From sequence record DRR723986_9837: a DNA stretch of 62,961 nt; one strand, written 5' to 3'. The translations under genes were made by a program, and so were the position numbers. Shown here one piece after another: positions 3,699 through 31,875 of this stretch. Under the pieces are notes generated by a model. That model worked only from the letters and a program-made list of their open reading frames with translations. It searched no databases and had not been told where the DNA came from. Positions within the stretch are counted from its first letter, which is position 1. Every line of letters starts with the position of its first letter.

Positions 3699-4295
3699 CT
3701 ACAGCCGCCAGACGCAGAAAGCAATCTGCGAGAAGTGAGGCTCAACCGGGCCGCGAGCATACTCGCAGGAACCCGAGCGAGGTGGTTGGACTGAAGTCGC
3801 AACATCAACGACACAGACAATGCTGAGCGTCAGTACGTCTCGCAACTCCGTGGCAGGCGAGCCCGGTACGGGTGCATTGAATGGCTCGGGAGCCATGATG
3901 CAATTGCATGCCGCCGCGATTGCCGCCAAATCAGTGGCTTTAACCTGCGCAGCGCTTTCGCATGATGTTTGCTTGGGGTGTCCAAGCAGGGACGCTTGAG
4001 GATCCGGGCCTTCTTGCAACTCCATTCCATCAAATGGATCGTCGGCAAAAGTCGCCGCATGGTGCTCCTCTTCACCGTGTCCGCAGCAACTGCCGTCATC
4101 TTTCGTGGCTTCACCACTGCAACAGGGGCACTTGACGGTTTCCGATTGCACTTTGCAACAACCGCAACCTTGGCACTTATATCCGGTCGAAACTCTATCG
4201 GAACAGTCCTGCTGAAGTCCGTACGCCAAGCTCGGCTGCATCGTTACGGCGACGATGAGTAAAAGATTGACGGCGATGTGGGTTGGACGGGCCAT
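3699..4295 (-). CDS. Cys-rich exported leader protein L1, upstream of cusBA
   Basis: Signal-like N-terminus, Cys clusters (CQGCGCC, CPCC, CNC), and C-terminus QPP..ARGP..FCVWRL*. Same architecture as four other leader ORFs in the window. Confidence 0.7.
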   Translation of the reverse strand: MARPTHIAVNLLLIVAVTMQPSLAYGLQQDCSDRVSTGYKCQGCGCCKVQSETVKCPCCSGEATKDDGSCCGHGEEEHHAATFADDPFDGMELQEGPDPQASLLGHPKQTSCESAAQVKATDLAAIAAACNCIMAPEPFNAPVPGSPATELRDVLTLSIVCVVDVATSVQPPRSGSCEYARGPVEPHFSQIAFCVWRL

Positions 4296-4335
4296 GTGAG
4301 TTATTCGGAAGTTTCCTTCAATCCGATCCGATGAT

Positions 4336-4352
4336 ATACCCTATGACGGTAT
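4336..4352. promoter_or_regulatory. CsoR/RcnR-type operator (ATACCC-N5-CGGTAT)
   Basis: Pseudo-palindrome TATACC-N7-GGTATA (4335-4353) between divergent L1-cusBA and tolC. Same format as the box at 6979 and as CsoR operators. Confidence 0.6.
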
Positions 4353-4447
4353 ACGAAGTATATCGGGTTTTCGGCCGATTGGTACAAGTCCAATTTGGCA
4401 CAACACGCAAGAACGCCATGTTATTGTAGTCTGCGGAGCAGCGATTT

Positions 4448-7252: not shown

Positions 7253-7281
7253 TTGACTCCGAAGCGTCGTTGGCCGATAAT
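7253..7281 (+). promoter_or_regulatory. sigma70-like promoter for the L2-czcBA operon
   Basis: TTGACT (7253-7258), 17-nt spacer, GATAAT (7276-7281), 40 nt upstream of ATG 7322. Confidence 0.5.
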
Positions 7282-7321
7282 CAAACCATCATCGACTGTT
7301 TCTCGTTTGCAGATCTTTGCT

Positions 7322-7708
7322 ATGTTCTTCCGTTTCATTCACCTGCTGACGTGCCTAACCGTGCTGGTTTGTCCAGCGATGGGTGGGACGTGTTGTGCAG
7401 ATGAGGACGATTCTAGGGTTGAACGTGGAGGCTGTGAGCATCATTGCTGCAGTGATGCGGATGGGGAACAAGCTCCGGTCGCTCCTGATTGTCCTGAACC
7501 GTGCCATGATTGTTTCTGTGCGGGGGCCTTGCCTCCGGGGTTCAATGCGTCGGTTGAACTGACGGATATGGTGGACACGCTCGCGATTGTTGCTGTCAAT
7601 GATTTGGCAGCGACATCCGTCACTCAGCGTCTCGAATTTTCTTCACGAGACGAATCGCCTCCGCATGGGCGAACGCTCCTAACGACTTATTGCAGGTTCC
7701 TGCTGTAA
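7322..7708 (+). CDS. Cys-rich exported leader protein L2
   Basis: MFFRFIHLLTCLTVLVCPAMGGTCCA..CEHHCC..CPEPCHDCFC..ESPPHGR..YCRFLL*. Start moved to ATG 7322, downstream of the promoter. Confidence 0.72.
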   Translation: MFFRFIHLLTCLTVLVCPAMGGTCCADEDDSRVERGGCEHHCCSDADGEQAPVAPDCPEPCHDCFCAGALPPGFNASVELTDMVDTLAIVAVNDLAATSVTQRLEFSSRDESPPHGRTLLTTYCRFLL

Positions 7709-7844
7709 GACGCTCTTTTGGCCTTTTTTTGGCTGCACTTCGTAGTGACTTTGGTTGCTTCGTGCTGCGCTGCTTGAGAACGGCCCGGTCGTTTGCTTGG
7801 GAACAAGCATCGTTTGAGCGTCACTCTTTCTTACAGCGGATGCA
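7691..7844 (+). promoter_or_regulatory. Predicted RBS-sequestering RNA stem between the end of L2 and the czcB ribosome-binding site
   Basis: GCTGTAAGA (7702-7710, includes the L2 stop TAA) is the exact reverse complement of TCTTACAGC (7829-7837). TCC/GGA and TGCA/TGCA extend the stem. GACGCTC (7709-7715)/GAGCGTC (7816-7822) is an inner pairing. The downstream ATG is at 7850. Confidence 0.6.
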
Positions 7845-7849
7845 TCACC

Positions 7850-9508
7850 ATGTCGGATGTCATGACTTCGCCGAAGGTCTCGGCAGAACCCATACCGGTC
7901 GATTCAGCGATCGACCAACAACCCACGCCCGATAGCGAGTCAACAGCAGCGGTGCGACCGCGAAACTCGCGTTTTCGGCGAGTGATACTGGCGATGGTCG
8001 GGTGGATTCCGTCGGTCTTGGTCGTCGCCGGGCTGGGAGCGTTGGCTTGGTATGGCCATCACAATGAATGGAAGTTGCCGCGTTTTGCGGCCACACCTTC
8101 ACCCACAATAACGGGGCCAGCGTGGTGCGACAGTCATGGAGTACCGGAAGCGGAATGCATCAATTGCGTTCCGGGTCTGATTGAAGACACGCCGAAGCTG
8201 ACGTTTTGTGATGTTCACGGCGTTCATGGCTGTGTGCTGCATGATCCATCACTCGCCGAGACGAAGTCACCTGCCGAAGTTACCGACAACGATCTTGCCC
8301 GAGCGGAACGGGCACTGACGGTTCGTCCTCGTCGAGAAAACTTGGCACTCAGTCAATTACCGGGTTCGCGAATTCAATTTGCTTCGCTCGATGCCATGCG
8401 GAGTGCAGGCGTTGACGTGGAACCAGTGCAGCGGCAGGCAATCATCGAAAGTGTCGAGACGGCGGGTGAAGTTCGCTACGACGCAACCAAGACAGCTCAA
8501 GTGTCTCCGCCTGCCGACGGAATTGTGAAGCAAGTGCGGGTGAATGTCGGTGATTGGGTGGAGGCCGGGCAGGTGTTGGCGGTTATTGATTCCGAGAAGG
8601 TGGGACGCTTGAAGTCTGAGCTTCTTTCTGCGTTGTCTGACGAGCGGCTGAAGCAGGACGCCGTTCGGCGCATCGAGCCGCTTGCCAATCGCAACGTCAT
8701 TCCCGGTAAGCGGTTGCTGGAAAGCCAGACTGAGCTTCAGCAGGCGACGTCGTTGGTGGAGAAAACCGTTCGGTCCCTCAGCAATCTTGGTCTGTCGGTT
8801 CATCTGGAACGCCTGCGATCACTTCAGCCGGAACAGGCGAAGGACGCCGTTCGCAAGTTGGGCACGGAGCAGATCGAGGAGCGGGACAGCGACAATCTGA
8901 TTGTGGTGATCGCCCCGTTGGCGGGCCGGGTGGTCGAACGTGAAACGGTTGTCGGTGAAGTCGTTGTTCGCGGAACTCAAATGTTTCGGCTATCCGATAC
9001 ACGAACGGTCTGGCTTGATCTTCGTGTGCCAGCCGAAGAAGCCTCGCTTGCGAAAATGGGACAAGAAGTTCGCTACCGTCCTGATGGACAAGCGACAGAG
9101 CATCGCGGCAAAGTCATTTGGATTAGTACGGACGTTGATCGGCAGACTCGAACTGTACGAGTGCGAGCGGAGCTTGAGAACGCAGACGGCAGTCTTCGCA
9201 ATGAGTCATTCGGATTGGGCCAGATTGTGCTGCGAGACGAACCGGATGCGATCGTGGTGCCGGACTCGTCGATTCAATGGGACGGCGAAAACACGCTGGT
9301 CTTTGTTCGCGACAAGCGATTCTTTGAAAAAGACCGACCGAAATTCTTTGTGGCTCGCTCGGTTCGCGTGGGAGTCAAGCAGGACGGGTTTATGGAAACT
9401 ATTGCGGGCGTGTTGCCGGGTGAAGTGGTCGCGTCCAGTGGCAGCGATGTGCTGCGGGCACAATTGCTGAAAAACAATTTGGGTGCAGGCTGCACCTGCG
9501 GTCACTGA
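7850..9508 (+). CDS. czcB: CzcB-type RND periplasmic adaptor with an N-terminal Cys/His metal-binding module
   Basis: TM anchor, WCDSHGVPEAECINC..FCDVHGVHGCVLH, MFP motifs (APLAGRVVER, TRTVRVRAEL), C-terminal GCTCGH. Start at ATG 7850. Confidence 0.85.
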   Translation: MSDVMTSPKVSAEPIPVDSAIDQQPTPDSESTAAVRPRNSRFRRVILAMVGWIPSVLVVAGLGALAWYGHHNEWKLPRFAATPSPTITGPAWCDSHGVPEAECINCVPGLIEDTPKLTFCDVHGVHGCVLHDPSLAETKSPAEVTDNDLARAERALTVRPRRENLALSQLPGSRIQFASLDAMRSAGVDVEPVQRQAIIESVETAGEVRYDATKTAQVSPPADGIVKQVRVNVGDWVEAGQVLAVIDSEKVGRLKSELLSALSDERLKQDAVRRIEPLANRNVIPGKRLLESQTELQQATSLVEKTVRSLSNLGLSVHLERLRSLQPEQAKDAVRKLGTEQIEERDSDNLIVVIAPLAGRVVERETVVGEVVVRGTQMFRLSDTRTVWLDLRVPAEEASLAKMGQEVRYRPDGQATEHRGKVIWISTDVDRQTRTVRVRAELENADGSLRNESFGLGQIVLRDEPDAIVVPDSSIQWDGENTLVFVRDKRFFEKDRPKFFVARSVRVGVKQDGFMETIAGVLPGEVVASSGSDVLRAQLLKNNLGAGCTCGH

Positions 9509-9532: not shown

Positions 9533-12500
9533 ATGCTCACTCGCCTAATTGACCTATCACTACATCATCGGTTCGCCGTCTTACTCGGTGTGCTGGTACT
9601 CATTGCCGGCGGCGGCTACGCTCTCAGTCAGCTTGATGTCGATGCGTTTCCCGATACGACGCCGATCATGGTTCAGGTCAACACGACTGCACCAGCATTG
9701 TCGCCGGAAGAAATCGAACGCCAGATCACCTATCCAATCGAGCAGTCACTTAGCGGCTTGCCGTCACTGGAAAACATTCGCTCGGTCTCGAAGTACGGCT
9801 TCTCGCAGGTCGTCGTGACGTTCGAGGATGGCACAGACATTTACTTCGCCCGACAGGTTGTCGGTGAGCGGCTGGCAACCGTGGAGCTTCCCGGTGGGGT
9901 GAGTCGTCCAAAGATGGGACCGGTGGCAACGGGACTCGGCGAAGTTTTTCATTACGTGCTGACCTATCCGGGCGTGGACTTCACGAAGCTGCCAGAGTCT
10001 GAGCGGATGCGAATGCTGACCGAGCTTCGCACCACGCACGATTGGGTGGTCAAACCACAACTGCGAACTGTCGCGGGCACCGCCGAAATCAACAGTTGGG
10101 GCGGTTACGAAAAACAGTTTCAAGTTCGCATTGATCCGGCGGGTTTGGTGTCGCGGGGGCTGACGTTTGGTGAAGTTGTTGATGCATTGCAGGAGAACAA
10201 TCGCAATGTTGGCGGTGGGAATGTCGATCGTATGGGCGAGATGTTGCTCGTTCAGGGGTTGGGGCGCACGACTGACATTCCACAAATTGAAAACATTGTC
10301 ATCAAGGCGAGCGATGGTGTGCCGGTACGAATTCGTGATGTAGCGACCGTCGCAGTCGGCCATGAGATTCGACGCGGTGCAGTGACAGCGGACGGCAATG
10401 GTGAAGCTGTCATGGGGCTGGGCTTCATGTTGATGGGCGAGAACACGCATCAGTACACCGACGCACTCAAAAGCAAAGTCGAAGAGATACAAGTCAACCT
10501 GCCAAGTGGCATGACGCTGGTCACGATGTATGACCGCACGGAATTGGTCGATTCCGTGATCGACACCGTTCGCAAGAATCTGTTTGAAGGCGGGTTGCTC
10601 GTTGTGGCCGTGCTGTTTTTCTTTCTCGGCAACCTGCGAGCCGGTCTGATTGTCGCATTGGCGATTCCTCTTTCGATGCTCTTTGCCTTCACTGGGATGT
10701 GGCGTTTCGGAATTGTCGCCAGTCTGTTGAGTCTCGGTGCGATCGACTTTGGGTTGGTCGTTGATAGTTCGGTCGTGATGGTCGAGAACTGTGTGCGACA
10801 TTTGGCAATGGCCAATCCTCTGGGGCGGAGTCGGTTGGAGAGAATTCGCGACGCGGCAGTTGGAGTTCGCGGGCCGACAATGTTCGGCGAACTCATCATT
10901 ATGATCGTCTATCTGCCGATCCTGACGCTCGAAGGCATCGAAGGAAAGATGTTTCGCCCGATGGCGCTGACGGTCATTTTTGCCTTGGCCGGTTCGATGC
11001 TGCTTTCAATGACGTTAATGCCGGTGCTGGCCAGTCTGCTGCTGCCCAAGAATATGAGTCATCGCGAGCCGCTGCTCGTACGAATCCTCAAGCGGCTCTA
11101 CCGCCCGGTGTTGCACTTCACGATGCACCAGAAGACAGCCATTATCGGATTCGCGGTGGCTGTGCTGGTAGTCGCATTCGGCATGATTGCTCCGAACCTC
11201 GGCACCGAGTTCATGCCACAACTTTCGGAAGGCTCGGTTGCAATCAACGTAGTACGTCTTGCCGGGACTCAACTTGATGAGTCGATGCGTTTCAACACGC
11301 AGATGGAAAAGGCGCTTCTGGACGAATTTCCAGATGAAGTGGCCCATGTCTGGAGCCGCATCGGCTCGGCAGAGATTGCCACCGATCCAATGGGACTCGA
11401 ATTGACTGATGTGTTCATCACGCTCAAACCGCGCGACGAATGGAAAAAGGCATCCACACAAGCTGAACTGACGTCGTTGTTCGAGCAGAAGCTGCGAACA
11501 CTTCCCGGCCAGCGACTCGCCTACACGCAGCCCATCAAGCTGCGAATGGACGAACTGGGAACCGGTAGTCGTAGCGACATTGCAGTCAAACTCTACGGCG
11601 ATGATTTGGATACGCTTGCCGACAAGGCCACTGAAATCGAGCGAGTGCTGATCGATGTGCCCGGTTCAGCGGATGTCGGTGCAACTCAGTTGACCGGGCA
11701 GCCGATGTTGCAAGTGATAATCAAGCAGAACGAAATCGCTCGCTACGGTATCCCGGCCTCCAGCGTCTTGGACTTGGTCGAAGCCGTTGGCAATCGACCT
11801 GTTGGCGACGTATTTCAAGGACAGCTTCGTTTTCCGCTGACCGTTCGACTTCCTGACGAATACCGTGACGACCCGGAAAAGATCGCCTCGATTCCGGTGA
11901 CGACTCCACGCGGCGAGCAGATTCCGCTTGGGCGATTGGCCGAAGTGAAGTTCACCAGTGGCCCATCACAGATTGCCCGCGAATGGGGGCAACGCCGAGT
12001 CACCGTATCCGTCAATGTACGAGGCCGCGATGTCGGCAGCTTCGTTGCAGAAGCGGAGAAAAAGATCGCAGAACAGGTGACACTGCCCTCGGCAAGATAC
12101 CACGTTGAATTCGGCGGACAATTTGAACACATGATTCAAGCCCGGCAACGGTTGTTCATCGTTGTGCCGGTCGCATTGGTGCTGATCTTTTCGCTGCTGT
12201 ATGTGACCTACGGAAACGTCATCGACACCGTGAGAATCTTCACCGGCATTCCGTTCGCGTGGACCGGCGGAGTGATCGCGTTGTGGCTGCGAGACATGCC
12301 ATTCTCTATTTCTGCGGCAGTTGGTTTTGTGGCCTTGTCCGGCGTTGCGGTGCTGGATGACATGCTGCTGGTTTCCACGATTCGGCAACTACGCCAACGC
12401 GGTCGGGATTTGGAATCTGCAGTCGAAGAAGCGGCGTTGACTCGGCTTCGGCCTGTGTTGATGACAACGCTGGTGGCAGCGTTGGGATTTGTCCCGATGG

Positions 12501-12745
12501 CCCTCAGCACTCGAATGGGTGCCGAAGTTCAGCGACCGCTCGCAACCGTCGTCATTGGTGGTGTTATCAGTGCGATGGTGATGTCGTTGCTGGTCCTGCG
12601 AGTGCTTTACATGGTATTTCAAAGTCCATTGGGTTCTGGGGATGAGACCCCGCAGAAGATCAACGGCGAACAGGTAGATAGTGAGACATTCAGCGAGAGT
12701 TCCACTCAAAGGCAACCGAGTCGTTTCGGTGCCAACGCTCGCTGA
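9533..12745 (+). CDS. czcA: CzcA-family heavy-metal efflux RND permease
   Basis: DAFPD, TM4 AIDFGLVVDSSVVMVEN, RLRPVLMT, GAEVQRPLATVVIGG; 1070 aa. Confidence 0.93.
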   Translation: MLTRLIDLSLHHRFAVLLGVLVLIAGGGYALSQLDVDAFPDTTPIMVQVNTTAPALSPEEIERQITYPIEQSLSGLPSLENIRSVSKYGFSQVVVTFEDGTDIYFARQVVGERLATVELPGGVSRPKMGPVATGLGEVFHYVLTYPGVDFTKLPESERMRMLTELRTTHDWVVKPQLRTVAGTAEINSWGGYEKQFQVRIDPAGLVSRGLTFGEVVDALQENNRNVGGGNVDRMGEMLLVQGLGRTTDIPQIENIVIKASDGVPVRIRDVATVAVGHEIRRGAVTADGNGEAVMGLGFMLMGENTHQYTDALKSKVEEIQVNLPSGMTLVTMYDRTELVDSVIDTVRKNLFEGGLLVVAVLFFFLGNLRAGLIVALAIPLSMLFAFTGMWRFGIVASLLSLGAIDFGLVVDSSVVMVENCVRHLAMANPLGRSRLERIRDAAVGVRGPTMFGELIIMIVYLPILTLEGIEGKMFRPMALTVIFALAGSMLLSMTLMPVLASLLLPKNMSHREPLLVRILKRLYRPVLHFTMHQKTAIIGFAVAVLVVAFGMIAPNLGTEFMPQLSEGSVAINVVRLAGTQLDESMRFNTQMEKALLDEFPDEVAHVWSRIGSAEIATDPMGLELTDVFITLKPRDEWKKASTQAELTSLFEQKLRTLPGQRLAYTQPIKLRMDELGTGSRSDIAVKLYGDDLDTLADKATEIERVLIDVPGSADVGATQLTGQPMLQVIIKQNEIARYGIPASSVLDLVEAVGNRPVGDVFQGQLRFPLTVRLPDEYRDDPEKIASIPVTTPRGEQIPLGRLAEVKFTSGPSQIAREWGQRRVTVSVNVRGRDVGSFVAEAEKKIAEQVTLPSARYHVEFGGQFEHMIQARQRLFIVVPVALVLIFSLLYVTYGNVIDTVRIFTGIPFAWTGGVIALWLRDMPFSISAAVGFVALSGVAVLDDMLLVSTIRQLRQRGRDLESAVEEAALTRLRPVLMTTLVAALGFVPMALSTRMGAEVQRPLATVVIGGVISAMVMSLLVLRVLYMVFQSPLGSGDETPQKINGEQVDSETFSESSTQRQPSRFGANAR

Positions 12746-12773
12746 TGAAAGTTGATTGCAAGGAGAAACTGCA

Positions 12774-13139
12774 ATGCGTTTGGTTTACGGAATGATGTTG
12801 TTGGCGATGTTCGGATTCACCACGCTCGGATTGACCGGGTGTAGTTCTAACACGGACACGGCCAGCACAGAAGAACATGCTGACCACGATCACGAGGGTG
12901 ACGAGCACGCTTCGCACGATCACAGTGGTTGGTGGTGCAACGAACACGGTGTTCCTGAAGACGAATGTGCTTTATGCAAGACGTCACTGGTCGCCGACTT
13001 CAAAGCGAAAGGCGACTGGTGCGACGAACATGACAGACCTGACTCGCAGTGCTTTGAGTGCAATCCGGAGAACTTCGAGAAATTTGCCGCGAGATATGAA
13101 GCCAAGTTTGGTGAGCAACCACCAAAGCCAACGGAGTGA
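12774..13139 (+). CDS. His/Cys-rich lipoprotein with two WCxEH..P...CxxC repeats (putative metallochaperone)
   Basis: AGGAG RBS, lipobox LTGC, His-rich linker, WCNEHGVPEDECALC and WCDEHDRPDSQCFEC. Confidence 0.8.
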   Translation: MRLVYGMMLLAMFGFTTLGLTGCSSNTDTASTEEHADHDHEGDEHASHDHSGWWCNEHGVPEDECALCKTSLVADFKAKGDWCDEHDRPDSQCFECNPENFEKFAARYEAKFGEQPPKPTE

Positions 13140-13145: not shown

Positions 13146-15290
13146 GTGAGTATGGAGAACAACAAAAGGGAAATCGAGCTACGCATTTACGGGATGGATT
13201 GCGCTGAGGAGGTCACACTCCTCAAGCGTGAATTGATTCCGCTATTGGGCGATGAAGATCGACTCGGTTTTGATTTATTGAATGGCAAGCTGTCCGTTGA
13301 TACGTCTTCACTCGACGTATCACGAACGGATGTGCTGGCTGCAATCGAACGAACCGGCCTGAAGTCCGCGCCTTGGCGGGACGATGGTGCGGCGAGTAAC
13401 GACCTTTCGTTCTGGCAAAAGCATCAGCGTTCGATCCTGACTGCGGTGAGTGGTCTGTTCGGACTGAGCGGGTTGGTTGTGCAGCTGTGGACGGGTGAGT
13501 CGGAATCGGTGCCGATTGCGTCGATCGTGCTTTACAGCGTCGGCATCGTTGCAGGTCTGCTGATGGTGCTTCCGAAAGCGTGGCGATCGCTTGTCTCATT
13601 GCGTCCCGATATGAACCTGTTGATGTCAGTCGCGGTAATCGGAGCGGTGTTGATTGGCGAATGGTTCGAGGGGGCGACGGTTGCGTTTCTGTTTTCGTTC
13701 TCACTGCTGCTTGAGTCATGGAGCGTAGGCCGGGCACGTCGAGCCATCGCTTCATTGATGGACTTGTCACCGCCGACCGCTCACCTTCGGGATGAAGCGG
13801 GCGAAGTGAAGGACGTGGCTCCCGCGGATGTGCCTGTCGGTTCCACAGTCATTGTGCGTCCCGGCGAAAAGATTCCGCTTGATGGTCGAGTTCTCAATGG
13901 AATCAGCGGCGTGAATCAGGCACCGATTACCGGTGAAAGCGTTCCCGTTGAAAAGGAATCTGGTGATGAAGTGTTTGCCGGAACTATCAACGGCGACGGC
14001 TTGCTGGAGATCGAAACGACCAAAGCTGCTGACGATACGACGCTGGCTCGAATCATCAAGATGGTTGGTGACGCCGGGTCCAAACGTGCTCCGTCGGAAA
14101 AGTGGGTTGAGAAGTTCGCAGCCGTCTATACGCCAGTGGTGATGCTTGTCGCCTTGCTGATGCTGGTGATTCCACCGCTGGTTTTCGAGGGAGATTGGTC
14201 CGTCTGGCTTTATCGCTCGCTCGTGTTGCTAGTCATCGCATGTCCGTGTGCCCTCGTGATTTCAACGCCCGTGAGCGTCGTGGCTGCATTGGCGGCGGCT
14301 GCTCGCAACGGCGTACTCATCAAAGGTGGAGTGTTCATTGAAGTCCCCGCCCACCTCAAGGCGATTGCGATGGACAAGACCGGCACATTGACACGGGGAG
14401 AACCGGCTGTTGTTGACGTGGTGCCGATGAACGGACATGACGAAGCAGAGCTACTTTTGCGAGCCGGTGCTTTGGAACTCAACAGCAACCATCCTTTGGC
14501 TCGTGCGATTGTCGAAGAAGCCAAACGTCGGGAATTGCAACTCGTCGCCGCCGACGAGTTTGAAACCATTCAGGGCAAAGGAGCGGCAGGAATCATCAAC
14601 GGCAAGCCGTATTGGTTGGGTTCACATCGCTACTTGGAACAGCGTGGACAGGAGACACCGGAGGTTCACGAGCAGTTGGAATCGATGACGGAAGCGGGGC
14701 GAACCGTGGTGGTGGTTGGAAACGATGAACACGTTTGCGGTTTCATCACACTGGCCGATGCCATCAGAGACGAATCCCGCGATGCGATTCGTCAACTTCA
14801 CGAAGCAGGTGTAGAGCAACTCGTGATGCTGACAGGTGACAACAAAGGCACGGCCAAAGCGATCGCCAAAGAAGCAGGCATCGACGAAGTTCACGCCGAG
14901 CTATTGCCTGAAGATAAAGTCGTGGCGGTCGAACGGCTGGTCAAACAATATGAACAAGTCGCAATGATTGGCGATGGCGTCAACGACGCCCCAGCACTTG
15001 CTCGTGCGTCACTCGGCTTGGCGATGGGAGCCGCCGGGAGCGATGCGGCCATCGAGACGGCTGACATTGCTTTGATGTCCGATGATCTTTCCAAGCTACC
15101 GTGGCTAATTCACCATTCAAGACGAACGCTCAGCATCATTCGCCAGAACATCGCGTTCTCACTCGCCGTTAAAGCCCTATTCGTCGTGTTAACGTTCGCT
15201 GGCTTCGCATCACTGTGGGCCGCGATCGCAGCCGACATGGGAGCCTCACTGCTGGTTATTGGGAATGGTCTGCGACTGCTCAAATCGTAA
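13146..15290 (+). CDS. zntA: P1B-2 type Zn/Cd/Pb-transporting P-type ATPase
   Basis: N-terminal GMDCAEE, TGES, TM6 CPC, DKTGT, SNHP, GDGVNDAP, TM7 Lys (QNIAFSLAVK) and TM8 AADMG. Confidence 0.93.
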   Translation: MSMENNKREIELRIYGMDCAEEVTLLKRELIPLLGDEDRLGFDLLNGKLSVDTSSLDVSRTDVLAAIERTGLKSAPWRDDGAASNDLSFWQKHQRSILTAVSGLFGLSGLVVQLWTGESESVPIASIVLYSVGIVAGLLMVLPKAWRSLVSLRPDMNLLMSVAVIGAVLIGEWFEGATVAFLFSFSLLLESWSVGRARRAIASLMDLSPPTAHLRDEAGEVKDVAPADVPVGSTVIVRPGEKIPLDGRVLNGISGVNQAPITGESVPVEKESGDEVFAGTINGDGLLEIETTKAADDTTLARIIKMVGDAGSKRAPSEKWVEKFAAVYTPVVMLVALLMLVIPPLVFEGDWSVWLYRSLVLLVIACPCALVISTPVSVVAALAAAARNGVLIKGGVFIEVPAHLKAIAMDKTGTLTRGEPAVVDVVPMNGHDEAELLLRAGALELNSNHPLARAIVEEAKRRELQLVAADEFETIQGKGAAGIINGKPYWLGSHRYLEQRGQETPEVHEQLESMTEAGRTVVVVGNDEHVCGFITLADAIRDESRDAIRQLHEAGVEQLVMLTGDNKGTAKAIAKEAGIDEVHAELLPEDKVVAVERLVKQYEQVAMIGDGVNDAPALARASLGLAMGAAGSDAAIETADIALMSDDLSKLPWLIHHSRRTLSIIRQNIAFSLAVKALFVVLTFAGFASLWAAIAADMGASLLVIGNGLRLLKS

Positions 15291-18958: not shown

Positions 18959-19165
18959 CAGCACGCGACCAAGGTTTGTCTCCGGCTGGTAACGACCAGT
19001 GGCTTTCAATGCCGCTGATGCACTCGTCCCCTTAGCAATGCCGGACACTCTCTTTGCCTTGGTCTGATCCTCTGCGATTGATTGATCGCTTTCCGCTGCG
19101 TTTGTCTCAGGCATGAGGCATGTCGCACGCAGGTTGGATGATTCCCGTGTGCTGGATATTGAACA

Positions 19166-20673: not shown

Positions 20674-23600
20674 ATGCTAAACGCAATTATTCGATTCGCA
20701 CTGAGACAGCGTTTGCTTGTCATTGCTGCTGCCCTGTTCCTTGTTGGTTATGGCACTTGGCAGGCAACGCAGTCACAGATTGACGTTTTCCCGGACCTCA
20801 ACCGTCCCCGTGTGGTCATTATGACCGAAGCGCCGGGACTGGCACCGGAGGAAGTCGAAACGCTGATTACGTTTCCTATTGAAACGACGATGAATGGAGC
20901 GAACGGTGTTCAGGCCGTTCGCAGTTCGTCGGGTGTCGGCATCTCCGTGATCTACGTTGAGTTCGACTGGGGCACCGACATCTACAACGATCGTCAGATT
21001 GTCAACGAACGTCTGCAACTTGTTCAGGAACGGATGCCGGATGGTGTGAAGCCAACGCTGGCACCGATCTCGTCCATCATGGGCCAGATTCTGATGCTCG
21101 GCATGTGGAGCGATGACAACGGCACCGAATCGCTGGAATTGAGAACGCTTGGTGACTGGGTAGTGCGACAACGTCTGTTGACGATCCCCGGTGTGTCGCA
21201 GGTGTTCACGATGGGGGGCGGTCGCAAGCAGTTTCAAGTTCTGGTCGATCCAGACTCCATGCTGCGTTACGGGGTGACGCTACATGAAGTGAAGCAGGCC
21301 GTGCAGGACAGCAATGAGAATGCAACCGGTGGATACCTTGATGAACAAGGGCCGAACGAATTACTGGTACGAGCGCTAGGCCGTGTGCAATCGATTGGCG
21401 ACTTGCAGAAAGTCGTTGTCACGATGCGGGAAGGCCGACCCATTGCGTTAGCTCAAATTGCTCGTGTTGTGGAAGGACCGCAAGTCAAACGTGGCGACAG
21501 CTCTGCATTCGTTCGAGGCGATGAAGGCAACTTCTCCGGTGGTCCCGCCGTCATCCTCACCATCAACAAACAACCAGGAGCCGACACACGGCGTGTGACA
21601 GATGATGTCATGGCTGCGATCGAGGATCTGCGACCATCATTGCCAAGCGATCTCCGCATCGAGCCACTCTACACACAGAAATCGTTCATTGACCGAGCGA
21701 TTGAAAACGTAGCAGAAGCACTACGTGATGGCGGCATCCTCGTTGTCATCATTCTGTTTTTGTTTCTCTTGAATTTACGCACGACGTTCATCACGCTCAC
21801 GGCAATCCCATTGTCACTGCTGATGACGGCGATCGTTTTTGCATTCTTCGGCCTGTCGATCAACACGATGACTCTTGGGGGGCTCGCCGTTGCGGTCGGA
21901 GAACTGGTTGATGACGCGATTGTTGACGTCGAGAACATCTTCCGGCGACTCAAGGAAAACCGCAGTCGGGCCAACCCCAAGAACCCTTTGCTTGTCGTGT
22001 TTCAGGCGAGTGTCGAGGTACGAAACTCGATCGTATTCGGGACAATAATCGTCATCTTGGCATTTGTCCCCTTGCTCGCACTGTCAGGGATGGAAGGCCG
22101 ATTATTCGCTCCGCTCGGTGTGGCCTATATCGTCTCCATTCTTTCCTCGACGCTGGTGTCACTGACGGTGACACCAGTGTTGTCATACTGGCTGCTGAGC
22201 GGCGGAAAGGTGATTGAACGCGAAAAAGATGGATTTGTTTTGCGGACAGTCAAATGGTTCGGAGACAGAATCATCCGGTTCAGCCTTCAGTTTCCTCGAT
22301 TCAATTTGGCGTTGCCCGCGCTTTTGGTCGCTATCGCTGCACTTTTCCTCGTTCGATTGGACCGTGACTTCCTGCCACCGTTCAATGAAGGCGCAGTCCA
22401 GTTAAACGTCGTTCTGCCACCGGGCACGTCTCTGGAAACGTCTAACGATATCGCTGGGCGTGTTGAAAGTCGGCTGAAGAAAATCGAAGACATCGAGCAG
22501 TTTGTTCGCAGGACGGGTCGAGCAGAACTCGATGAGCACGCTGAAGGCGTGAACATGAGCGAGTTCATTCTGGAACTCGATCCGGAGTCAGCTCGGTCAC
22601 GCGAAGAGCAACTTGAAGAAATCCGTGAAGCGATGGCCGATATTCCGGGCATCGTGACCGCAGTGGAGCAGCCACTGGCTCATCTGATTTCGCACATGCT
22701 TTCTGGTGTGAAAGCGCAGATCGGAATGAAGATCTATGGTGACGACTTGGATACGTTGCGTCGCAAAGCGGACGAGATGAAGTCCGCCATGCAGTCAGTG
22801 CCGGGTGTGAAGGATTTGCTCGTCGAACCACAGGTCACGATCCCTCAGCTACGAATTGAGTTGGACCGCGATCAGCTTCTTCAATACGGACTCACACCCG
22901 CCGTGGTCAATGAGTTCATCGAAACGGCGATGAGTGGGCAGGTGGTCTCAGAAGTATTGATTGAGCAGCGGACATTCGATCTGCTGATTCGACTTGATGA
23001 AAACTACCGCGAGAACCTTCAAGCACTTCGACGTTTGACGATTGATTTGGAAGATGGCGGTAAGCTGCCCTTGGAAGCGGTTGCGAACATCTACGAGTCA
23101 GGCGGTCCAAACACGGTCAACCGTGAGAATGTGCGTCGTCGCATTGTCTTGCAGTGCAACGTGTCAGATCGCGGCGTGGTGGATGTCGTACAGGACATTC
23201 AAAAGCGTGTTCGCCCCGTGGTGGAATCGCTTCCTCCCGGCTACTTCGTTGAGTACAGCGGTCAATTTGAAAGTCAACAATCTGCCTCGCGTGTCATCGC
23301 TGTATTGTTCGTGATGTCGATGATCGGCATCTTCCTAGTGCTATTCACAATGTTTCGCTCCATCAATCTTTCATTGCAGGTGATGGTCGCATTACCGATG
23401 GCTTTCATCGGATCAGTTGCCGCTTTAGTCGTCACCGGTCAGACACTAACGGTGGCCGCAATGGTGGGTTTTGTCTCCTTGGGTGGCATTGCGTCTCGCA
23501 ATGGCATCCTGTTGGTCAATCACTATCTGCATTTGGTCAAGTACGAAGGCGAGAGCTGGACAAAGGAAATGATCGTCCGTGCCGGACTGGAACGTCTGGC

Positions 23601-23928
23601 ACCTGTATTGATGACGGCACTGACATCGGGCATTGCCCTGATTCCACTGGTCCTTGCTGCGGGCGAGCCGGGCAAAGAAATCCTGTATCCAGTGGCGACA
23701 GTGAGCTTGGGCGGACTGATCAGTTCCGCACTTCTCGACTTCTTCGTTCGCCCGGCTTTGTTCTGGCTGTTCGGTTTGAAGGAGGCCGAACGTGTCGTCA
23801 ATGAATCAAACACTGAAGTTGCGCTCGTCGAGGAAGCTGACGAACCGCATTTTTCCAATGAATCAAATCCCACTTCGTCCGGGACGACGGAGACCACTGA
23901 ACCTGTTACCGCTCCTGCTGCCCAATGA
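20674..23928 (+). CDS. Heavy-metal efflux RND permease with a distinct TM4 subtype
   Basis: DVFPDLNRP, TM4 LAVAVGELVDDAIVDVEN, GRAELDEHAEG, ERLAPVLMT, GKEILYPVA. Confidence 0.92.
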   Translation: MLNAIIRFALRQRLLVIAAALFLVGYGTWQATQSQIDVFPDLNRPRVVIMTEAPGLAPEEVETLITFPIETTMNGANGVQAVRSSSGVGISVIYVEFDWGTDIYNDRQIVNERLQLVQERMPDGVKPTLAPISSIMGQILMLGMWSDDNGTESLELRTLGDWVVRQRLLTIPGVSQVFTMGGGRKQFQVLVDPDSMLRYGVTLHEVKQAVQDSNENATGGYLDEQGPNELLVRALGRVQSIGDLQKVVVTMREGRPIALAQIARVVEGPQVKRGDSSAFVRGDEGNFSGGPAVILTINKQPGADTRRVTDDVMAAIEDLRPSLPSDLRIEPLYTQKSFIDRAIENVAEALRDGGILVVIILFLFLLNLRTTFITLTAIPLSLLMTAIVFAFFGLSINTMTLGGLAVAVGELVDDAIVDVENIFRRLKENRSRANPKNPLLVVFQASVEVRNSIVFGTIIVILAFVPLLALSGMEGRLFAPLGVAYIVSILSSTLVSLTVTPVLSYWLLSGGKVIEREKDGFVLRTVKWFGDRIIRFSLQFPRFNLALPALLVAIAALFLVRLDRDFLPPFNEGAVQLNVVLPPGTSLETSNDIAGRVESRLKKIEDIEQFVRRTGRAELDEHAEGVNMSEFILELDPESARSREEQLEEIREAMADIPGIVTAVEQPLAHLISHMLSGVKAQIGMKIYGDDLDTLRRKADEMKSAMQSVPGVKDLLVEPQVTIPQLRIELDRDQLLQYGLTPAVVNEFIETAMSGQVVSEVLIEQRTFDLLIRLDENYRENLQALRRLTIDLEDGGKLPLEAVANIYESGGPNTVNRENVRRRIVLQCNVSDRGVVDVVQDIQKRVRPVVESLPPGYFVEYSGQFESQQSASRVIAVLFVMSMIGIFLVLFTMFRSINLSLQVMVALPMAFIGSVAALVVTGQTLTVAAMVGFVSLGGIASRNGILLVNHYLHLVKYEGESWTKEMIVRAGLERLAPVLMTALTSGIALIPLVLAAGEPGKEILYPVATVSLGGLISSALLDFFVRPALFWLFGLKEAERVVNESNTEVALVEEADEPHFSNESNPTSSGTTETTEPVTAPAAQ

Positions 23929-23965
23929 CGGGGAACAGTCGGTGAATCTCTTGAAGGAGAGAACG

Positions 23966-24640
23966 ATGTTGAACTTTACCAAAACCGTCGTCTGCTGTTT
24001 GGCGGTCGTAGCTCTGTCGAGTTTGACAGAAGCAGGCGAGGCGATCGCCTACCGTCTGAGCAAGACGAAGGAAATGCATTTCGATGATGGGCGCAAAGCC
24101 GAGCAGCACTTGGCGGCTGTCAAGAAACTCGGCTGTGAAGCCCGTATGAACTCGCTCGGAGGTCACACGGATGTCATTTACCGATCTGCAAGATGGCAGG
24201 TCATGGAAGTTGCCAACGACAAGCTGGCTCACCAGTGGGAAGACTGGTTGAAGAAAGCGGGGTTCGAGACGGTCCACGGCCACGCTGCCGACCACGGTAC
24301 GGGGCATGACGCTCACGACGGTCACGATCATTCTGGCCATGACCATGCCGGACACAGTCACGAAGGACACAACCACGGTCCCGGCAAGGCGGAAGAAGTC
24401 TCATACGTGTTGCCAAACTGGAAAACGATCCATTCCCGAGACACCGCTCAGATGTCTGAACTGGTCGCGTTGTTGAAGGGCCTCGGCTGCGAAGTGCGAA
24501 CCGAGGACCACGGCGGTCACAGAGATGTCAGTGTTCGTTGTTCGCAGTGGAAACACGTTGAATTCGTTTCCCATGAAGCTGCCGCAGGCTGGCAGGACTG
24601 CCTGCGAAAGAACGGATTCGAGACACGTCACGAACACTGA
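23966..24640 (+). CDS. Exported protein with an internal domain duplication and a His-rich linker
   Basis: AAGGAG RBS and signal peptide. Two similar halves (K..H..LGCE.R...GGH.DV..R...W......W...L.K.GFET.H) are joined by a His tract. Confidence 0.8.
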   Translation: MLNFTKTVVCCLAVVALSSLTEAGEAIAYRLSKTKEMHFDDGRKAEQHLAAVKKLGCEARMNSLGGHTDVIYRSARWQVMEVANDKLAHQWEDWLKKAGFETVHGHAADHGTGHDAHDGHDHSGHDHAGHSHEGHNHGPGKAEEVSYVLPNWKTIHSRDTAQMSELVALLKGLGCEVRTEDHGGHRDVSVRCSQWKHVEFVSHEAAAGWQDCLRKNGFETRHEH

Positions 24641-24733: not shown

Positions 24734-25264
24734 ATGAAAACCGTTTCTACTAACCTCGCACTGTCATTCGCGTTGATGGCCATGATTGTCGCTGGCTGTT
24801 CCAACAACAATTCCACTGGCCACGAAACTGCCGGTCCACCAAACACGATGGACTCACACGATGACCACGCCGGTAATGCTCACCCGTCAGAGGGTCCGCA
24901 TCATGGCGACCTGATTGAGCTGGGTAACGAAGAATATCACGCCGAGATTCTTCACGATGAAGATGCAGGGACGGTCACCATCTATGTGCTCAACGGGGCT
25001 GCCACCGAACAGGTTCCGATTGATGCAACAGAAGTCACGATCAACGCCAAGCACGACGGCAAGCCGGAACAATTCACGCTGACCGCTTCGCCGGATACGA
25101 ATGATCCGCAAGGCAAATCCTCTCGCTTCGTCTCCAAAAATGAAGAACTCGCTCATCACCTTGATGAAGAAGGTGCGGAACCGCGACTGGTTCTGAGCAT
25201 CAACGGTAAATCCTATCGCGGCACGATTTCGCATGATCACGACCACGAAGGACACGACCACTGA
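24734..25264 (+). CDS. His-rich lipoprotein
   Basis: GGAG RBS, lipobox VAGC, GPHHGDLIELG..YHAE, C-terminal HDHDHEGHDH. Confidence 0.82.
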   Translation: MKTVSTNLALSFALMAMIVAGCSNNNSTGHETAGPPNTMDSHDDHAGNAHPSEGPHHGDLIELGNEEYHAEILHDEDAGTVTIYVLNGAATEQVPIDATEVTINAKHDGKPEQFTLTASPDTNDPQGKSSRFVSKNEELAHHLDEEGAEPRLVLSINGKSYRGTISHDHDHEGHDH

Positions 25265-29010: not shown

Positions 29011-29018
29011 ATGACCTC

Positions 29019-30122
29019 TTAGTGGCTATGTTCAGCAGAAGACTTTCCCATCTCCGCCTTGAGTAAAAAGGTATTGCCCGCCGCGACAACTTCCCCTGCA
29101 TGCAGACCGTCGAGAACCTCAACCCTTTGCCCATCAGAACGACCGGTGTTCAAGTGCCGCACTTCGAAGCCTTTGCTACCATCAGGCACCTTTACCTGAA
29201 CAAACACAGATGGTTTGTTCTCGATCAACAGGACAGAACTCTCGGGCACGGCAACTGCCACACTGTGCTCAGTGAGAGAAACTTCCACAGTGACGAACAT
29301 CCCCGGTGGCCACTGCTGCTGTTGGTTAGATAGTTCCAGACGCGCGTGTCCGGACCGCGTTGCTTCCGATAAGGTAGGGCGGATGTAGGTAATCCGTGTA
29401 TCGAGGCGGGCATCCGTCGATTGTGAGAGGACGGTCGCTGGCATCCCTACCTTGAGTGCCGCCAATAGCCTTGGCGGCACAGCAATATTGGCCCACGTTG
29501 ATTCGAGATTACCCAGTTTGAAAAGCACCTTTTCGCTCGATACGAACTCCCCCTTGGTAGCGTCCTGATCAATGATGACACCATCAATTTCGGCCTTTAC
29601 TTGATAGTTGGATAGACTCTCGTTGCTTTGGACGGTTGCCAGGACCTCGCCAGCTTGAACAGTATCGCCAAGCATCTTGCGGACACGCGTGAGCGTGCCG
29701 GGAAAGCGTGGAACAACATGAACCAGGGTATTGCCATTGATGACTGTCTCCCCATAGAAACTCTGTCGCTCCTGAATGACCGCAGGTGCAGCAGGGACGA
29801 ACTCAATTCCTTCTCGTTTTGCCTTCTCCCAAGAATACTGCAAGAACTTTTGAGACGATTCACTGTGCTCATCATGCTTTTGGTTCGGTTTAGTGTGAGA
29901 AGCGTTGTCATGATCACTAAGTGGATTGCTCTTGTGAAAAGTTGCGTTATCCGATTCTGGATCGCACGCTTCCCGATCCGCAGCACAACGACCCGCGTGT
30001 GAGCCGTGATCCTGGTCGGCGTGACCCGTTTCTTCTTTAGCACTGACACACCCTCCACCGACGAGGACCAAGCAGAGTAGGAACACGAGTTTAGAAATAG
30101 TTCTGTGGGGCTTATTGGTCAT
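29019..30122 (-). CDS. czcB: CzcB-type RND periplasmic adaptor
   Basis: MFP motifs (PRFPG, WPPGMFV, FLLKAEMGKSSAEHSH). Start placed at ATG 30122, overlapping the czcC 3' end; the track start is 30368. Confidence 0.87.
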   Translation of the reverse strand: MTNKPHRTISKLVFLLCLVLVGGGCVSAKEETGHADQDHGSHAGRCAADREACDPESDNATFHKSNPLSDHDNASHTKPNQKHDEHSESSQKFLQYSWEKAKREGIEFVPAAPAVIQERQSFYGETVINGNTLVHVVPRFPGTLTRVRKMLGDTVQAGEVLATVQSNESLSNYQVKAEIDGVIIDQDATKGEFVSSEKVLFKLGNLESTWANIAVPPRLLAALKVGMPATVLSQSTDARLDTRITYIRPTLSEATRSGHARLELSNQQQQWPPGMFVTVEVSLTEHSVAVAVPESSVLLIENKPSVFVQVKVPDGSKGFEVRHLNTGRSDGQRVEVLDGLHAGEVVAAGNTFLLKAEMGKSSAEHSH

Positions 30123-31443
30123 TGCATGCTCCTTGATCCAGTTGATTGAGTCGTTCTTGAAGCGTTCCGCTGAGCCGTTGTATGTCAACTTGTTCGCGAA
30201 TCGCTGAAAGCGTGATAGTGACAAGACGCTCACGACGGTCAAGATAAGTTGTCTGAGCATCGAGGTAGTCAAGATAGTTAATGCGACCGAGCCGATAGGC
30301 ATCGGTAGCGGACGTAAGCACGCGTGCTGTCTGCGGCAAAAGACTTTCCTGAAGAAGCTCTCGTTCAAATAGGAGCAGCCGCAATCGATCGCGACGGGAT
30401 GCGAGCTCCGTAGCGACCCTAATCTGAGTGCTGGCGAGATTGAAATGACTTGCCCTTAGTTTCTCATCCGCTCCCTGGGAGGCGAATTGATTGCGGTCAA
30501 ATAGTGGCAGAGGAATCGCCACGCCTGCCACGAACGCATGATCGTCTGTGGAATCAAAGCGTCGAAAACCGGCTGAAACCGTAACGTTGGGAATGGCTAA
30601 GGCACGTTGCAAATCAGCAGATTTTGTCGCGGCAACCCGTTGAGCAGTTGCATAAGCGACATCAGGAGTCCTTTGCACATCCGTCGCCGAAAGCTCAGCT
30701 TGCGGATCGTGGAGAAGTAGTTCGCGGCCGCTGAAAGTGACATCCGAAGAATTTCCGCCCCACAGCGCCGTCAATCTTCGTTTTGCTATCTGCAGCTCCT
30801 GCGTTCTTTGCTTGCGAACAACTTCGGCGGTTTGAAGCGCCACATCTGCTTTGTCAACTTCAAGTCTGAGGGCTCCACCGTGCGAAGACTTGCGTGAAAC
30901 AAGGCGCAGCGCCTGCCTGAGAATCTGAACCTCTTTTTCAGATAGTGCCAGTAGAGACTTGGAAGCAATCACCTCTGCATAGGCGATACGAGCTTTTGCA
31001 AGTATCTCTGCCGTAGTGATATCACAACGTATGTCAAATGCGTCGGCATTGGCCTTTGCAACGGAAGAGCGTGCTCCTCGCTTGCCCGCCGTTTCGATCA
31101 ATTGAGAAATCCAGCCGGTCAATTCTAGGTCGTCTTCGGAATGGTTCCCGCCAAAGTCCTCTGCCTCAAAGGTTATGATGGGATTGGGTAGCCGAGCAGC
31201 TTGCTGAGTCTGAGCACGCAGTGAACGCAGTGTCGCTGACTGACTCTGCAACTGTGGATTTCCAGACTGGATTCGTTCTACGACCTGCGAAAAGCATGAA
31301 ATCGTTGTAGTTAATCGGTCAGTTGAGTCCGTGCTGTCTTCAGAGAAAGGGCTCTGGGCGATTGCTACGTTAACGGTAGTCAACAAAATAGCAACGGACG
31401 CCAGCAACCCGAATGTCGGATTCTGTTTCATCGTCTGATTCAC
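30112..31443 (-). CDS. czcC: CzcC/TolC-family outer-membrane factor
   Basis: LPNP, IETAGKRGAR, IPLPLFDRNQ, AYRLGRINYLDYLDAQ. Start is GTG 31443 or ATG 31431. Confidence 0.9.
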   Translation of the reverse strand: MNQTMKQNPTFGLLASVAILLTTVNVAIAQSPFSEDSTDSTDRLTTTISCFSQVVERIQSGNPQLQSQSATLRSLRAQTQQAARLPNPIITFEAEDFGGNHSEDDLELTGWISQLIETAGKRGARSSVAKANADAFDIRCDITTAEILAKARIAYAEVIASKSLLALSEKEVQILRQALRLVSRKSSHGGALRLEVDKADVALQTAEVVRKQRTQELQIAKRRLTALWGGNSSDVTFSGRELLLHDPQAELSATDVQRTPDVAYATAQRVAATKSADLQRALAIPNVTVSAGFRRFDSTDDHAFVAGVAIPLPLFDRNQFASQGADEKLRASHFNLASTQIRVATELASRRDRLRLLLFERELLQESLLPQTARVLTSATDAYRLGRINYLDYLDAQTTYLDRRERLVTITLSAIREQVDIQRLSGTLQERLNQLDQGACNDQ

Positions 31444-31514
31444 AATCGAATTGAGTCATAAACCGGGCCGATTACGCCCGAGCATAAACGTACGAATTGG
31501 TTGGAATCAGACGA
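31431..31514 (-). promoter_or_regulatory. Predicted hairpin pairing the L5 stop region with the czcC start region
   Basis: Perfect 11-bp inverted repeat TCGTCTGATTC (31431-31441)/GAATCAGACGA (31504-31514), with an inner CGGGC/GCCCG stem. One arm holds the L5 stop codon; the other touches both candidate czcC starts. Confidence 0.65.
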
Positions 31515-31875
31515 GAATGACGGTGAATTTCTGGGAACGCAGATGCGCCGAGATAGTGTTCCCCGAGATTGTAAACAGCCGTTCGTCCACTCGTACACGG
31601 TAAGGCTGTTCCGGCTCCTGACGAACGGCTAGGACCCCGCCTGGTGCAGCAGCTTGGTTCTCGAGGGAATTTCCGCTGACCGCAATGTTTGTTTCGCGTG
31701 CAGGGCAGGTGCAACCTTCGCACTCGCAGAGTTTATGCTCGTGAACGGGCGCCTCATTTTGCCACTGATCAGCGTGAGCGACATGAGGCGCGCAAAGTAT
31801 GTGCGAAGATCCCACCGCAAGGAGAAGAAAAACCAAGAAAATTGCCGTCAGGCGCTGGAAGAAACAGTCGCACAT
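31507..31875 (-). CDS. Cys-rich exported leader protein L5 (CzcI-like position)
   Basis: Hydrophobic N-terminus ..HILCAPH, CECEGCTCP, C-terminus FTVILV*. First gene before czcCBA. Confidence 0.68.
   Translation of the reverse strand: MCDCFFQRLTAIFLVFLLLAVGSSHILCAPHVAHADQWQNEAPVHEHKLCECEGCTCPARETNIAVSGNSLENQAAAPGGVLAVRQEPEQPYRVRVDERLFTISGNTISAHLRSQKFTVILV

Follow-up and report, generated by a model that had tools for sequence, protein, structure and literature searches.

Five small, cysteine-rich open reading frames (ORFs), here called L1 to L5, stand in front of efflux genes in sequence record DRR723986_9837. The DNA examined is a stretch of 62,961 nucleotides (nt), referred to below as the window, and all coordinates are positions in the whole of it; Pfam assignment of its genes identifies a heavy-metal efflux island. 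Together with their homologues, the five ORFs make up four unannotated planctomycete families that keep a genetically fixed place on the 5' side of heavy-metal resistance-nodulation-division (RND) pump genes. By analogy with CutF of Rhodobacter capsulatus, the best reading of L1 to L5, and one to which we give slightly less than even weight, is that they may be co-translational metal sensors acting in cis.

Each of the five ORFs lies 5' of an efflux gene on the same strand. The original prediction had placed them there from the letters alone, and translations and Pfam matches bear this out (Table 1). The spacers, measured to the likely downstream starts, are 238, 141, 68, 207 and 75 nt for L1 to L5, respectively. 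The further statement that the ORFs head their operons was not confirmed as worded: L4 and L5 are located in the interior of longer arrays of genes on one strand. The link to metal-pump genes is also kept in homologues, whose loci carry three-digit numbers here. In the L2 family, an HlyD_D23 membrane-fusion gene comes next in all 18 scanned loci; eight of 26 had been dropped before the scan, namely the near-duplicates L034, L035, L038, L008 and L015, L007 with its frameshift, L040, which is partial, and one duplicate row. The same kind of gene follows in 23 of 24 L4-family loci, the miss (L048) being a 152-amino-acid (aa) ORF call. A gene with HMBD and/or HlyD_D23 is next in four of four L1-family loci, and a gene for an outer-membrane factor of the OEP family is next at the one homologue locus of L5 (1/1). 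The genes upstream of L2 homologues are mutually unrelated and encode, among others, a cytochrome c, a peptidase, a methyltransferase, a permease and an HMG-CoA reductase. With the downstream gene locked to the pump and the upstream genes unrelated, the small ORF therefore accompanies the pump as the leading gene.

The five ORFs had been proposed to form one family, and this was not upheld. All-against-all BLASTP, with a database of the five sequences, gave no significant pair (best E 0.07). A hidden Markov model (HMM) of the L2 superfamily, made from 117 representatives, picked out only L2 (117 bits) and L3 (21.7 bits, E 4.8e-6) from the full set of 603 stop-to-stop ORFs in the window, and hhalign comparisons among the L2, L1 and L4 profiles were non-significant. 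Because the HMM joins L3 alone to L2 and the BLASTP and hhalign results are otherwise non-significant, we count four families at the sequence level (L2 with L3, L4, L1 and L5), with no significant similarity between them. A kinship of L4 with L2 was considered when a broader L4 alignment reached a probability of 91%, yet this match covered only 21 hydrophobic N-terminal residues and was not counted as homology. The last 14 nt of L1 (3699-3712, minus strand) and L4 (18945-18958, plus strand) are identical; they comprise the codons for VWRL plus two bases, the first and second, of the stop codon, in proteins that have little else in common.

Substitution patterns identify L1 to L5 as real genes under purifying selection. 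In all five, the ratio of non-synonymous to synonymous substitution rates (dN/dS, Nei-Gojobori, with the nearest homologue as reference) falls within 0.22-0.48, with 0.29 for L1 against L042, 0.23-0.35 for L2, 0.34 for L3 and 0.48 for L5 against L032. None of the five belongs to a Pfam family, and none reaches an NCBIfam cut-off. At E<=0.01, database homologues number 23 for L2, 40 for L1 and 55 for L4; almost all lack a name or are called 'hypothetical', and those with a name are from Planctomycetota. Homologues are on record for Stieleria maiorica, Rubinisphaera italica and Calycomorphotria hydatis. The L2-family profile retrieves 120 representative clusters at E<=1e-3. Of 201 genomes sampled from the order to which the closest genome belongs, 65 are matched by the L4 profile and four by the L1 profile, and single-protein searches of the same set find L3 in two genomes and L5 in one. 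A metagenome scan added just nine loci. A search of sequencing runs returned holders of the contig with shares of up to 0.26 and one metatranscriptome at 0.08, a figure for contig sharing and not for expression. In the closest genome (G001), all segments are 78-91% identical at L1, L3 and L4, which makes that comparison uninformative for these three. A profile search of solved structures gave no relative (E 0.62 and 2). DUF6660 (PF20365), a protein-atlas lead with a score of 0.93, was rejected, as five related genomes gave no L-like match to it (best E 0.48); otherwise the atlas returned unnamed clusters and weak DUF leads only.

The four families share a layout, which had been predicted for the five ORFs and is kept in their homologues: an N-terminal hydrophobic helix with Cys or His, a central Cys motif, a spacer and a conserved tail at the stop. 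The hydrophobic segment begins at about residue 5 in L1 to L5, and conserved N-terminal segments read LLxCLTVLVCPAMGGxCC in L2 and LHAMLGCCAHHxH in L4. The central motif is CHDCFCAGALPP (CxxC) in L2, CPYC (CxxC) in L3, CDEGxC (Cx4C) in L4, an invariant CxC in L1 and HEHxLCECExCxC, which contains CxxC, in L5. The number of residues after the last central Cys, which we call the ruler, is nearly constant. Its median is 64 in the L2 superfamily (interquartile range 63-65; 105 of 112 within 61-69) and 65 in the L4 superfamily (range 59-67, n=48, about half of them close relatives). It measures 66-67 in the L1 family (n=21), 65 by hand count in L5 and its sole homologue L032, and 61 aa from CPYC to the end in L3. 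The spacer thus has a fixed length of 61-67 residues yet is poorly conserved in sequence, and the N-terminal side is far more variable in length (24-82, 73-131 and 89-139 residues in the L2 and L4 superfamilies and the L1 family, respectively). With family alignments, AlphaFold2 predicted no globular fold for L2 or L4. The L2 model has a predicted local distance difference test score (pLDDT) of 61 and a predicted template modelling score (pTM) of 0.29, with helices only at residues 2-25 and 116-127; the L4 model has a pLDDT of 61, a pTM of 0.25 and a helix at 2-30.

The tails end exactly at the stop codon and read PPxGRxLLTSYCxLLL in L2, ARAxxQVWRL in L4, PHFSQIAFCVWRL in L1 and HLRSQKxxVIL[VI] in L5; the wider L4 superfamily has PP[LI]RxHLxxx[VL]LLI. 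Conserved tail residues use up to six synonymous codons, and stop codons vary as well (TAA or TAG in 16 L2-family loci; TAA, TGA or TAG in 25 L4-family sequences). Because many synonymous codons and two or three different stops are used, the tail is, on this sequence evidence, selected as a peptide in each family, and the predicted stop-proximal conservation is supported. A Pro at positions -20 to -11 occurs in 95 of 117 L2-superfamily, 46 of 48 L4-superfamily and 21 of 21 L1-family sequences. An Arg or Lys at -14 to -9 is present in 110 of 117 and 46 of 48 members of the two superfamilies, and in just three of 21 in the L1 family. The Pro-Pro motif that had been noticed in L1, L2 and L4 is conserved in the L2 family, where P stands at -16 in 16 of 16 and at -15 in 12 of 16 sequences, and is common in the L4 superfamily, but it is not conserved in the L1 family; L3 and L5 lack it. 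The tail also holds a Cys that is kept in 15 of 16 L2-family sequences and is invariant in L1.

For L2 and L5, a conserved helix is predicted that pairs the small ORF's end with the region where the pump gene starts. For each of the five junctions, 150 dinucleotide shuffles served as background for the base pairs to be expected between two regions, that of the stop (-42 to +12) and that of the next start (-22 to +7). The L5 junction gave 19.6 expected pairs against 3.4 in the shuffles, a value reached by none of the 150, and the L2 junction 11.5 against 3.1, reached by seven. At L4, the 8.1 pairs against 2.7 were reached by 17 shuffles and are not significant; in the minimum-energy fold, the sequence just past the L4 stop pairs with positions -22 to -11 of the fusion-gene ATG. 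Pairing was not found at the L3 junction (5.3 against 4.2). In the putative L5 helix, the 10-nt CGUCUGAUUC, which includes the UGA stop, is fully complementary to GAAUCAGACG directly before the OEP AUG (31431). The helix is kept in L032, 40% identical in protein, with a G-C to A-U change and the loss of one pair; between the two loci, identity amounts to 80.5% in the intergenic region, compared with 65% in the ORF, 67% in the OEP gene and 58% in the upstream DNA.

The closing helix of L2 (Table 1) is predicted by RNAalifold from five L2-type loci. Three of 61 pairs are compensatory, and one such G-C to A-U pair falls inside the closing helix. In 12 of 15 L2-family loci, 15-25 stop/start pairs are expected, against shuffle means of 3-10, with p<=0.05 in four of 15 and p<=0.15 in 11 of 15. 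Combining one locus per L2 subgroup (eight values) by Fisher's method gave a chi-square of about 36 with 16 degrees of freedom and a p of about 0.003, by hand arithmetic and on loci that are related. Among divergent L2 representatives with fixed starts, five of seven form predicted helices of 14-30 pairs and differing sequence; L039 has six pairs and L006 none. The L2 intergenic region is as conserved as coding DNA, the upstream DNA being about 50% identical in three of four comparisons, and in three of four comparisons the tail codons of L2 have a lower synonymous rate (dS) than its middle. No Rfam family matched in the window, no terminator-like site was found in the five intergenic regions, and there is no rut-like bias of C over G past the stop (C 0.30 and G 0.27 in the L4 family, the same as in the ORF). 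A weak promoter-like match lies at 3599-3570 in the L1 intergenic region. Two short sequences recur in the L2 family: TGCTGCGC, about 60 nt past the stop in most divergent intergenic regions, and CGTTTGAG[CT]GT, just 5' of the fusion-gene start in the group of the window and that of L009.

DUF2946 proteins are described in PMC9426467 as defined by CXXC plus RAPP at the C-terminus, three residues from the end, with about 45 residues in between; the same source gives CruR of Bordetella pertussis an intergenic region of 162 nt. L1 to L5 resemble them as putatively exported Cys-motif ORFs before metal operons, with a fixed spacing from Cys to C-terminus and, in L4 and L1, long intergenic regions (207 and 238 nt). 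They differ in the spacing itself, the Cys motif lying 61-67 residues from the C-terminus here and 49-56 residues in planctomycete DUF2946-like ORFs. The earlier view that they are distinct from DUF2946 and lack RAPP was supported. PF11162 did not match L1 to L5, any of 15 L2-family members at E<=10 or, over its cut-off, any of five related genomes. Against 15 planctomycete DUF2946-like ORFs, hhalign gave probabilities of 4% for the L2 profile and 9% for the L4 profile, and none of 117 L2-superfamily, 48 L4-superfamily, 21 L1-family or five window sequences has R[AG][PG]P among its last 15 residues. Canonical DUF2946/CruR-like ORFs do exist in Planctomycetota (L020, 1492-1914 on the minus strand, and L076-L096), over the Pfam cut-off in 10 of 301 genomes, and show CxxC, about 45 residues, R[AG]PP and then 2-8 residues to the stop. 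By their sequence, these canonical RAPP ORFs are a separate family that coexists in the phylum.

CutF is closer. It has Cys5, Cys12, C41xxxC45 and a C-terminal PPPRL ending at residue 118 (10.1101/2025.02.05.636593); a stem-loop between cutF and cutO is described as shielding the cutO start (10.1101/2022.11.11.516240), and genes for OEP, ACR_tran and HlyD_D23 proteins are given as frequent neighbours of CutF-like proteins (Ozturk et al. 2023, PMC9973294). The likeness extends to small size, a putative N-terminal export signal, N-terminal Cys, Pro residues, a conserved C-terminus, a central Cys motif some 65-73 residues from the C-terminal end (C45 to L118 in CutF), a position directly before metal-homeostasis genes and, for L2 and L5, a predicted stem over the next start. 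The CutF protein itself is reported to escape detection in vivo although it is actively translated. What differs is the end: no PPP or PP stands at the very C-terminus here, and 12-17 conserved residues follow the prolines. L1 (198 aa) and L4 (155 aa) also exceed 150 aa and are too long for the filters of the census of CutF-like proteins. PP is found in the last 15 residues of none of the five window ORFs and none of 117 L2-superfamily sequences, in nine of 48 of the L4 superfamily and in one of 21 of the L1 family; the filter for PP in the last 15 residues used by the census of CutF-like proteins would therefore remove 117 of 117, 39 of 48 and 20 of 21 of them, respectively. Planctomycetes are not named in the main text and two supplementary files of that census (PMC9973294). 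There, CzcI of Cupriavidus metallidurans is called CutF-like without a C-terminal proline motif and is suggested to be a metal-sensing regulator (PMC9973294). L1 to L5 resemble it, by description only, as small ORFs before czcCBA-type RND genes; no CzcI model was among the Pfam and NCBIfam matches of the window ORFs.

LpqS of Mycobacterium, described in PMC13712839 as the first gene of a copper-induced operon, was tried as a family for L2 and rejected: L2 scored 17.7-18.6 bits against its model (NF052429), whose cut-off is 35. Ten of 19 L2-family members match this model weakly at E<=1 over most of its length (best E 0.0017). Among arrest peptides, TnaC stalls at the stop codon, and the gene that follows is controlled by a ribosome at the leader's end. 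Conserved residues over the last 12-17 positions are a likeness to TnaC and SecM; there is no sequence resemblance. A literature search found no relevant description of planctomycete Cys-rich efflux-associated proteins. The principle itself is not new, being known for CutF, for CruR and for CutF-like ORFs in front of RND genes; in the searchable papers we found no published description of the families, their tail motifs, the common ruler of 61-67 residues or their abundance in Planctomycetota.

Co-translational metal sensing could proceed as follows. The N-terminal hydrophobic segment would bring the nascent chain to the Sec translocon. With the ribosome on the last codons, the central Cys motif would lie 61-67 residues behind the peptidyl-transferase centre and just out on the periplasmic side, a placement past the Sec channel that rests on the general lengths of tunnel and channel. 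Metal binding at this motif, or a disulfide between it and the N-terminal Cys cluster, would alter the pull on the chain, and the tail of 12-17 residues in the exit tunnel would respond to the pull by lengthening or shortening the time that the ribosome spends at or near the stop, perhaps by modulating termination or the final rounds of elongation. For L2 and L5, a ribosome in that position would melt the helix that hides the start of the next pump gene and so set its translation. Any arrest should fall at or next to the stop, because a stall at Pro-Pro would leave the 12-16 conserved residues that follow unexplained and, by the geometry of the L2 coordinates, would not reach the helix. The original prediction had cast the ORFs as a planctomycete counterpart of CutF and CruR; the ruler, the tail, the position and the stop/start pairing of L2 and L5 speak for this, but L1 and L4 have no attenuator-like structure and the idea of one family did not stand.

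Several observations weigh against sensing by the nascent chain, and some of them favour an alternative that we regard as nearly as likely and not mutually exclusive with it: that L1 to L5 are mature periplasmic or membrane-anchored metal-binding accessories of the pumps, working as chaperones, buffers or trans-acting sensors in the manner proposed for CzcI or CusF. The tail would then be a docking or membrane-interface helix, and the helix at the start would provide ordinary translational coupling, so that both proteins are co-made; indeed, it would do so even without any arrest. Purifying selection acts over the whole length, including the variable middle of L2 (omega 0.21-0.36), and the Cys and His load (16 Cys in L1, 19 His in L4) exceeds what a sensor motif needs. 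The N-terminal hydrophobic segment, with its Cys, His and Pro, is unusually conserved for a cleaved signal peptide in the L2 and L4 families and resembles a retained anchor, in line with the helices predicted there. The L2 tail is predicted as a short helix (residues 116-127), and its conserved Cys, like that of L1, is therefore a possible metal ligand. Each family has its own type of downstream protein, as binding partners would, and the L2-unit fusion protein has conserved Cys/His motifs of its own. Within the spacer of L4, AlphaFold2 places two helices of moderate confidence (98-134). The tails do not resemble characterised arrest motifs, with RAPP, RAGP or PPP at the end in 0 of 117, 0 of 48 and 0 of 21 sequences of the L2 and L4 superfamilies and the L1 family.

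Part of the RNA data weighs in the same direction. The spacers of L1 and L4, 200-240 nt long, have no detectable structure: the L1 junction has no stop/start pairing (0.7 expected pairs against 2.2) and an intergenic fold z of 0.02, and in the L4 family pairing reached p<=0.05 in none of 22 loci, with zero pairs in 10 of them. Single-sequence fold z values are weak (L2 -1.25, L5 -1.99, L032 -0.35, L4 -1.56), and RNAalifold on 12 divergent L2-family junctions returned 0 pairs and no consensus structure, after which the L2-family RNA was analysed by subgroup. What accessory proteins do not readily account for is the ruler. A fixed Cys-to-end distance of 61-67 residues recurs in four families without detectable homology and runs through a poorly conserved region that is predicted to be mostly unstructured; a folded domain does not readily explain it, with no confident fold and no relative among solved structures. 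Intergenic conservation at L2 and L5 is likewise above the usual needs of coupling.

The same ruler, the same position relative to the pump genes, and the same order of elements with a conserved stop-proximal tail in each family also make it improbable that the likeness is a coincidence among unrelated small secreted Cys-rich proteins with no common mechanism, a view that does draw on the lack of significant homology among L1, L4, L5 and the L2/L3 superfamily. Membrane-anchored partners in extracytoplasmic function (ECF) sigma/anti-sigma signalling, which would control transcription of the pump operons as CnrY and CnrX do, come to mind from an ECF sigma gene divergent from L2, a zf-HC2 anti-sigma gene in the same island and another zf-HC2 gene upstream at the L2-homologue locus L014. 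This is very improbable: that zf-HC2 gene is the only one among 16 ORFs upstream of L2 homologues, none of which is an ECF sigma gene and the others of which are unrelated, and L1 to L5 have no cytoplasmic N-terminal domain, since the hydrophobic segment begins at about residue 5. Co-translational sensing in the manner of CutF, our preferred reading, also has a more far-reaching form, which we consider rather unlikely: that at least four sequence-unrelated planctomycete families would constitute a new class of exported metal-sensing leaders. In these, a tail of 12-17 residues (Pro near -13 to -17, Arg near -11 or -12, a hydrophobic end and no RAPP or PPP) would hold the ribosome at the stop codon or next to it, and a ruler of about 65 residues would span tunnel and Sec channel and so link periplasmic metal to translation of the RND pump; the class would have been missed by the PP filter of the census.

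Table 1. Features of the window, in order of position
Feature	Position	Strand	Remarks
RND gene beyond the L1-unit fusion gene	runs off the left end of the window	-	Pfam
HMBD + HlyD_D23 membrane-fusion gene 3' of L1	1259-3460	-	Pfam
L1-to-fusion-gene intergenic region	3461-3698	-	238 nt
L1	3699-4295	-	198 aa, 16 Cys
ECF sigma gene, divergent neighbour of L2	6187-6789	-	Pfam
Promoter-like TTGACT-17-GATAAT	7253-7281	+	40 nt before L2 ATG; consensus match only
L2	7322-7708	+	128 aa
L2 closing helix, 5' arm (predicted)	7679-7715	+	final 30 nt of L2, its stop and the next 7 nt
L2 closing helix, 3' arm (predicted)	7816-7856	+	34 nt before fusion-gene ATG (7850) and the ATG
HlyD_D23 membrane-fusion gene of L2 unit	7850-9508	+	141 nt past L2
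RND gene of L2 unit	9533-12745	+	Pfam
127-aa ORF	12756-13139	+	no Pfam family; weak lipoprotein-like NCBIfam matches
P-type ATPase	13146-15290	+	Pfam
ORF without Pfam family	15350-15991	-	
L3	16241-16651	+	136 aa, GTG start
OEP outer-membrane factor 3' of L3	16720-18228	+	lipoprotein signal; 68 nt past L3
L4	18491-18958	+	155 aa, 19 His
L4-to-fusion-gene intergenic region	18959-19165	+	207 nt
Membrane-fusion gene of L4 unit	19166-20662	+	Pfam
RND gene of L4 unit	20674-23928	+	Pfam
ORF without Pfam family	23792-24640	+	
ORF without Pfam family	24734-25264	+	
OEP, membrane-fusion and RND genes 3' of L5	25837-31431	-	Pfam
L5 end, intergenic region and OEP start	31429-31520	-	predicted helix
L5	31507-31875	-	122 aa; OEP 75 nt further on
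RND-like gene	31960-35952	-	1330 aa; Pfam
Fusion gene with HMBD + DUF3347 domains	36016-38427	-	Pfam
zf-HC2 anti-sigma-like gene 5' of HMBD fusion gene	38450-39394	-	

Further features of the island stand apart from the small ORFs. The fusion protein of the L2 unit and its homologues carry an invariant WCDSHGVPExECIVC ... CxEHGVHGC after the membrane helix and a conserved C-terminal GAGCTCGH, sequence motifs which suggest that this protein has metal sites of its own. The RND-like gene at 31960-35952 (minus strand) is unusually long, and the ACR_tran model matches it in five separate stretches. The pump unit whose fusion protein has HMBD and DUF3347 (36016-38427) is without a small Cys-rich ORF; the zf-HC2 gene stands in front of it. 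Mobile-element and defence genes adjoin the efflux island at 41163-62798. They include tyrosine integrases at 41163-42197 and 61587-62798 (both on the minus strand), a Hachiman-like pair of HamA and a DEAD-box helicase (42437-45972), a TraG/TrwB-type coupling protein (49815-53018, minus strand), an MT-A70 methylase, HipA and a Ser/Thr kinase, and GC content drops to 0.47-0.48 at 42-46 kb.

To our knowledge, CutF and CruR are so far the only two proteins for which metal sensing by the nascent exported chain has been shown, both from Pseudomonadota and both with proline motifs at the very C-terminus. If L1 to L5 do work in this way, such sensing would be carried to another phylum and to heavy-metal RND pumps, the tails would be new candidate arrest sequences, and the four families, with their spacing of about 65 residues, would amount to a natural ruler experiment. 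Were they mature accessory proteins instead, they would form a new class of pump-specific metal-binding partners, which would be useful to know yet less surprising. The families are common, with the L4 type in 65 of 201 genomes and 120 clusters under the L2 profile; all are annotated as hypothetical, and a function for them would therefore name many genes.

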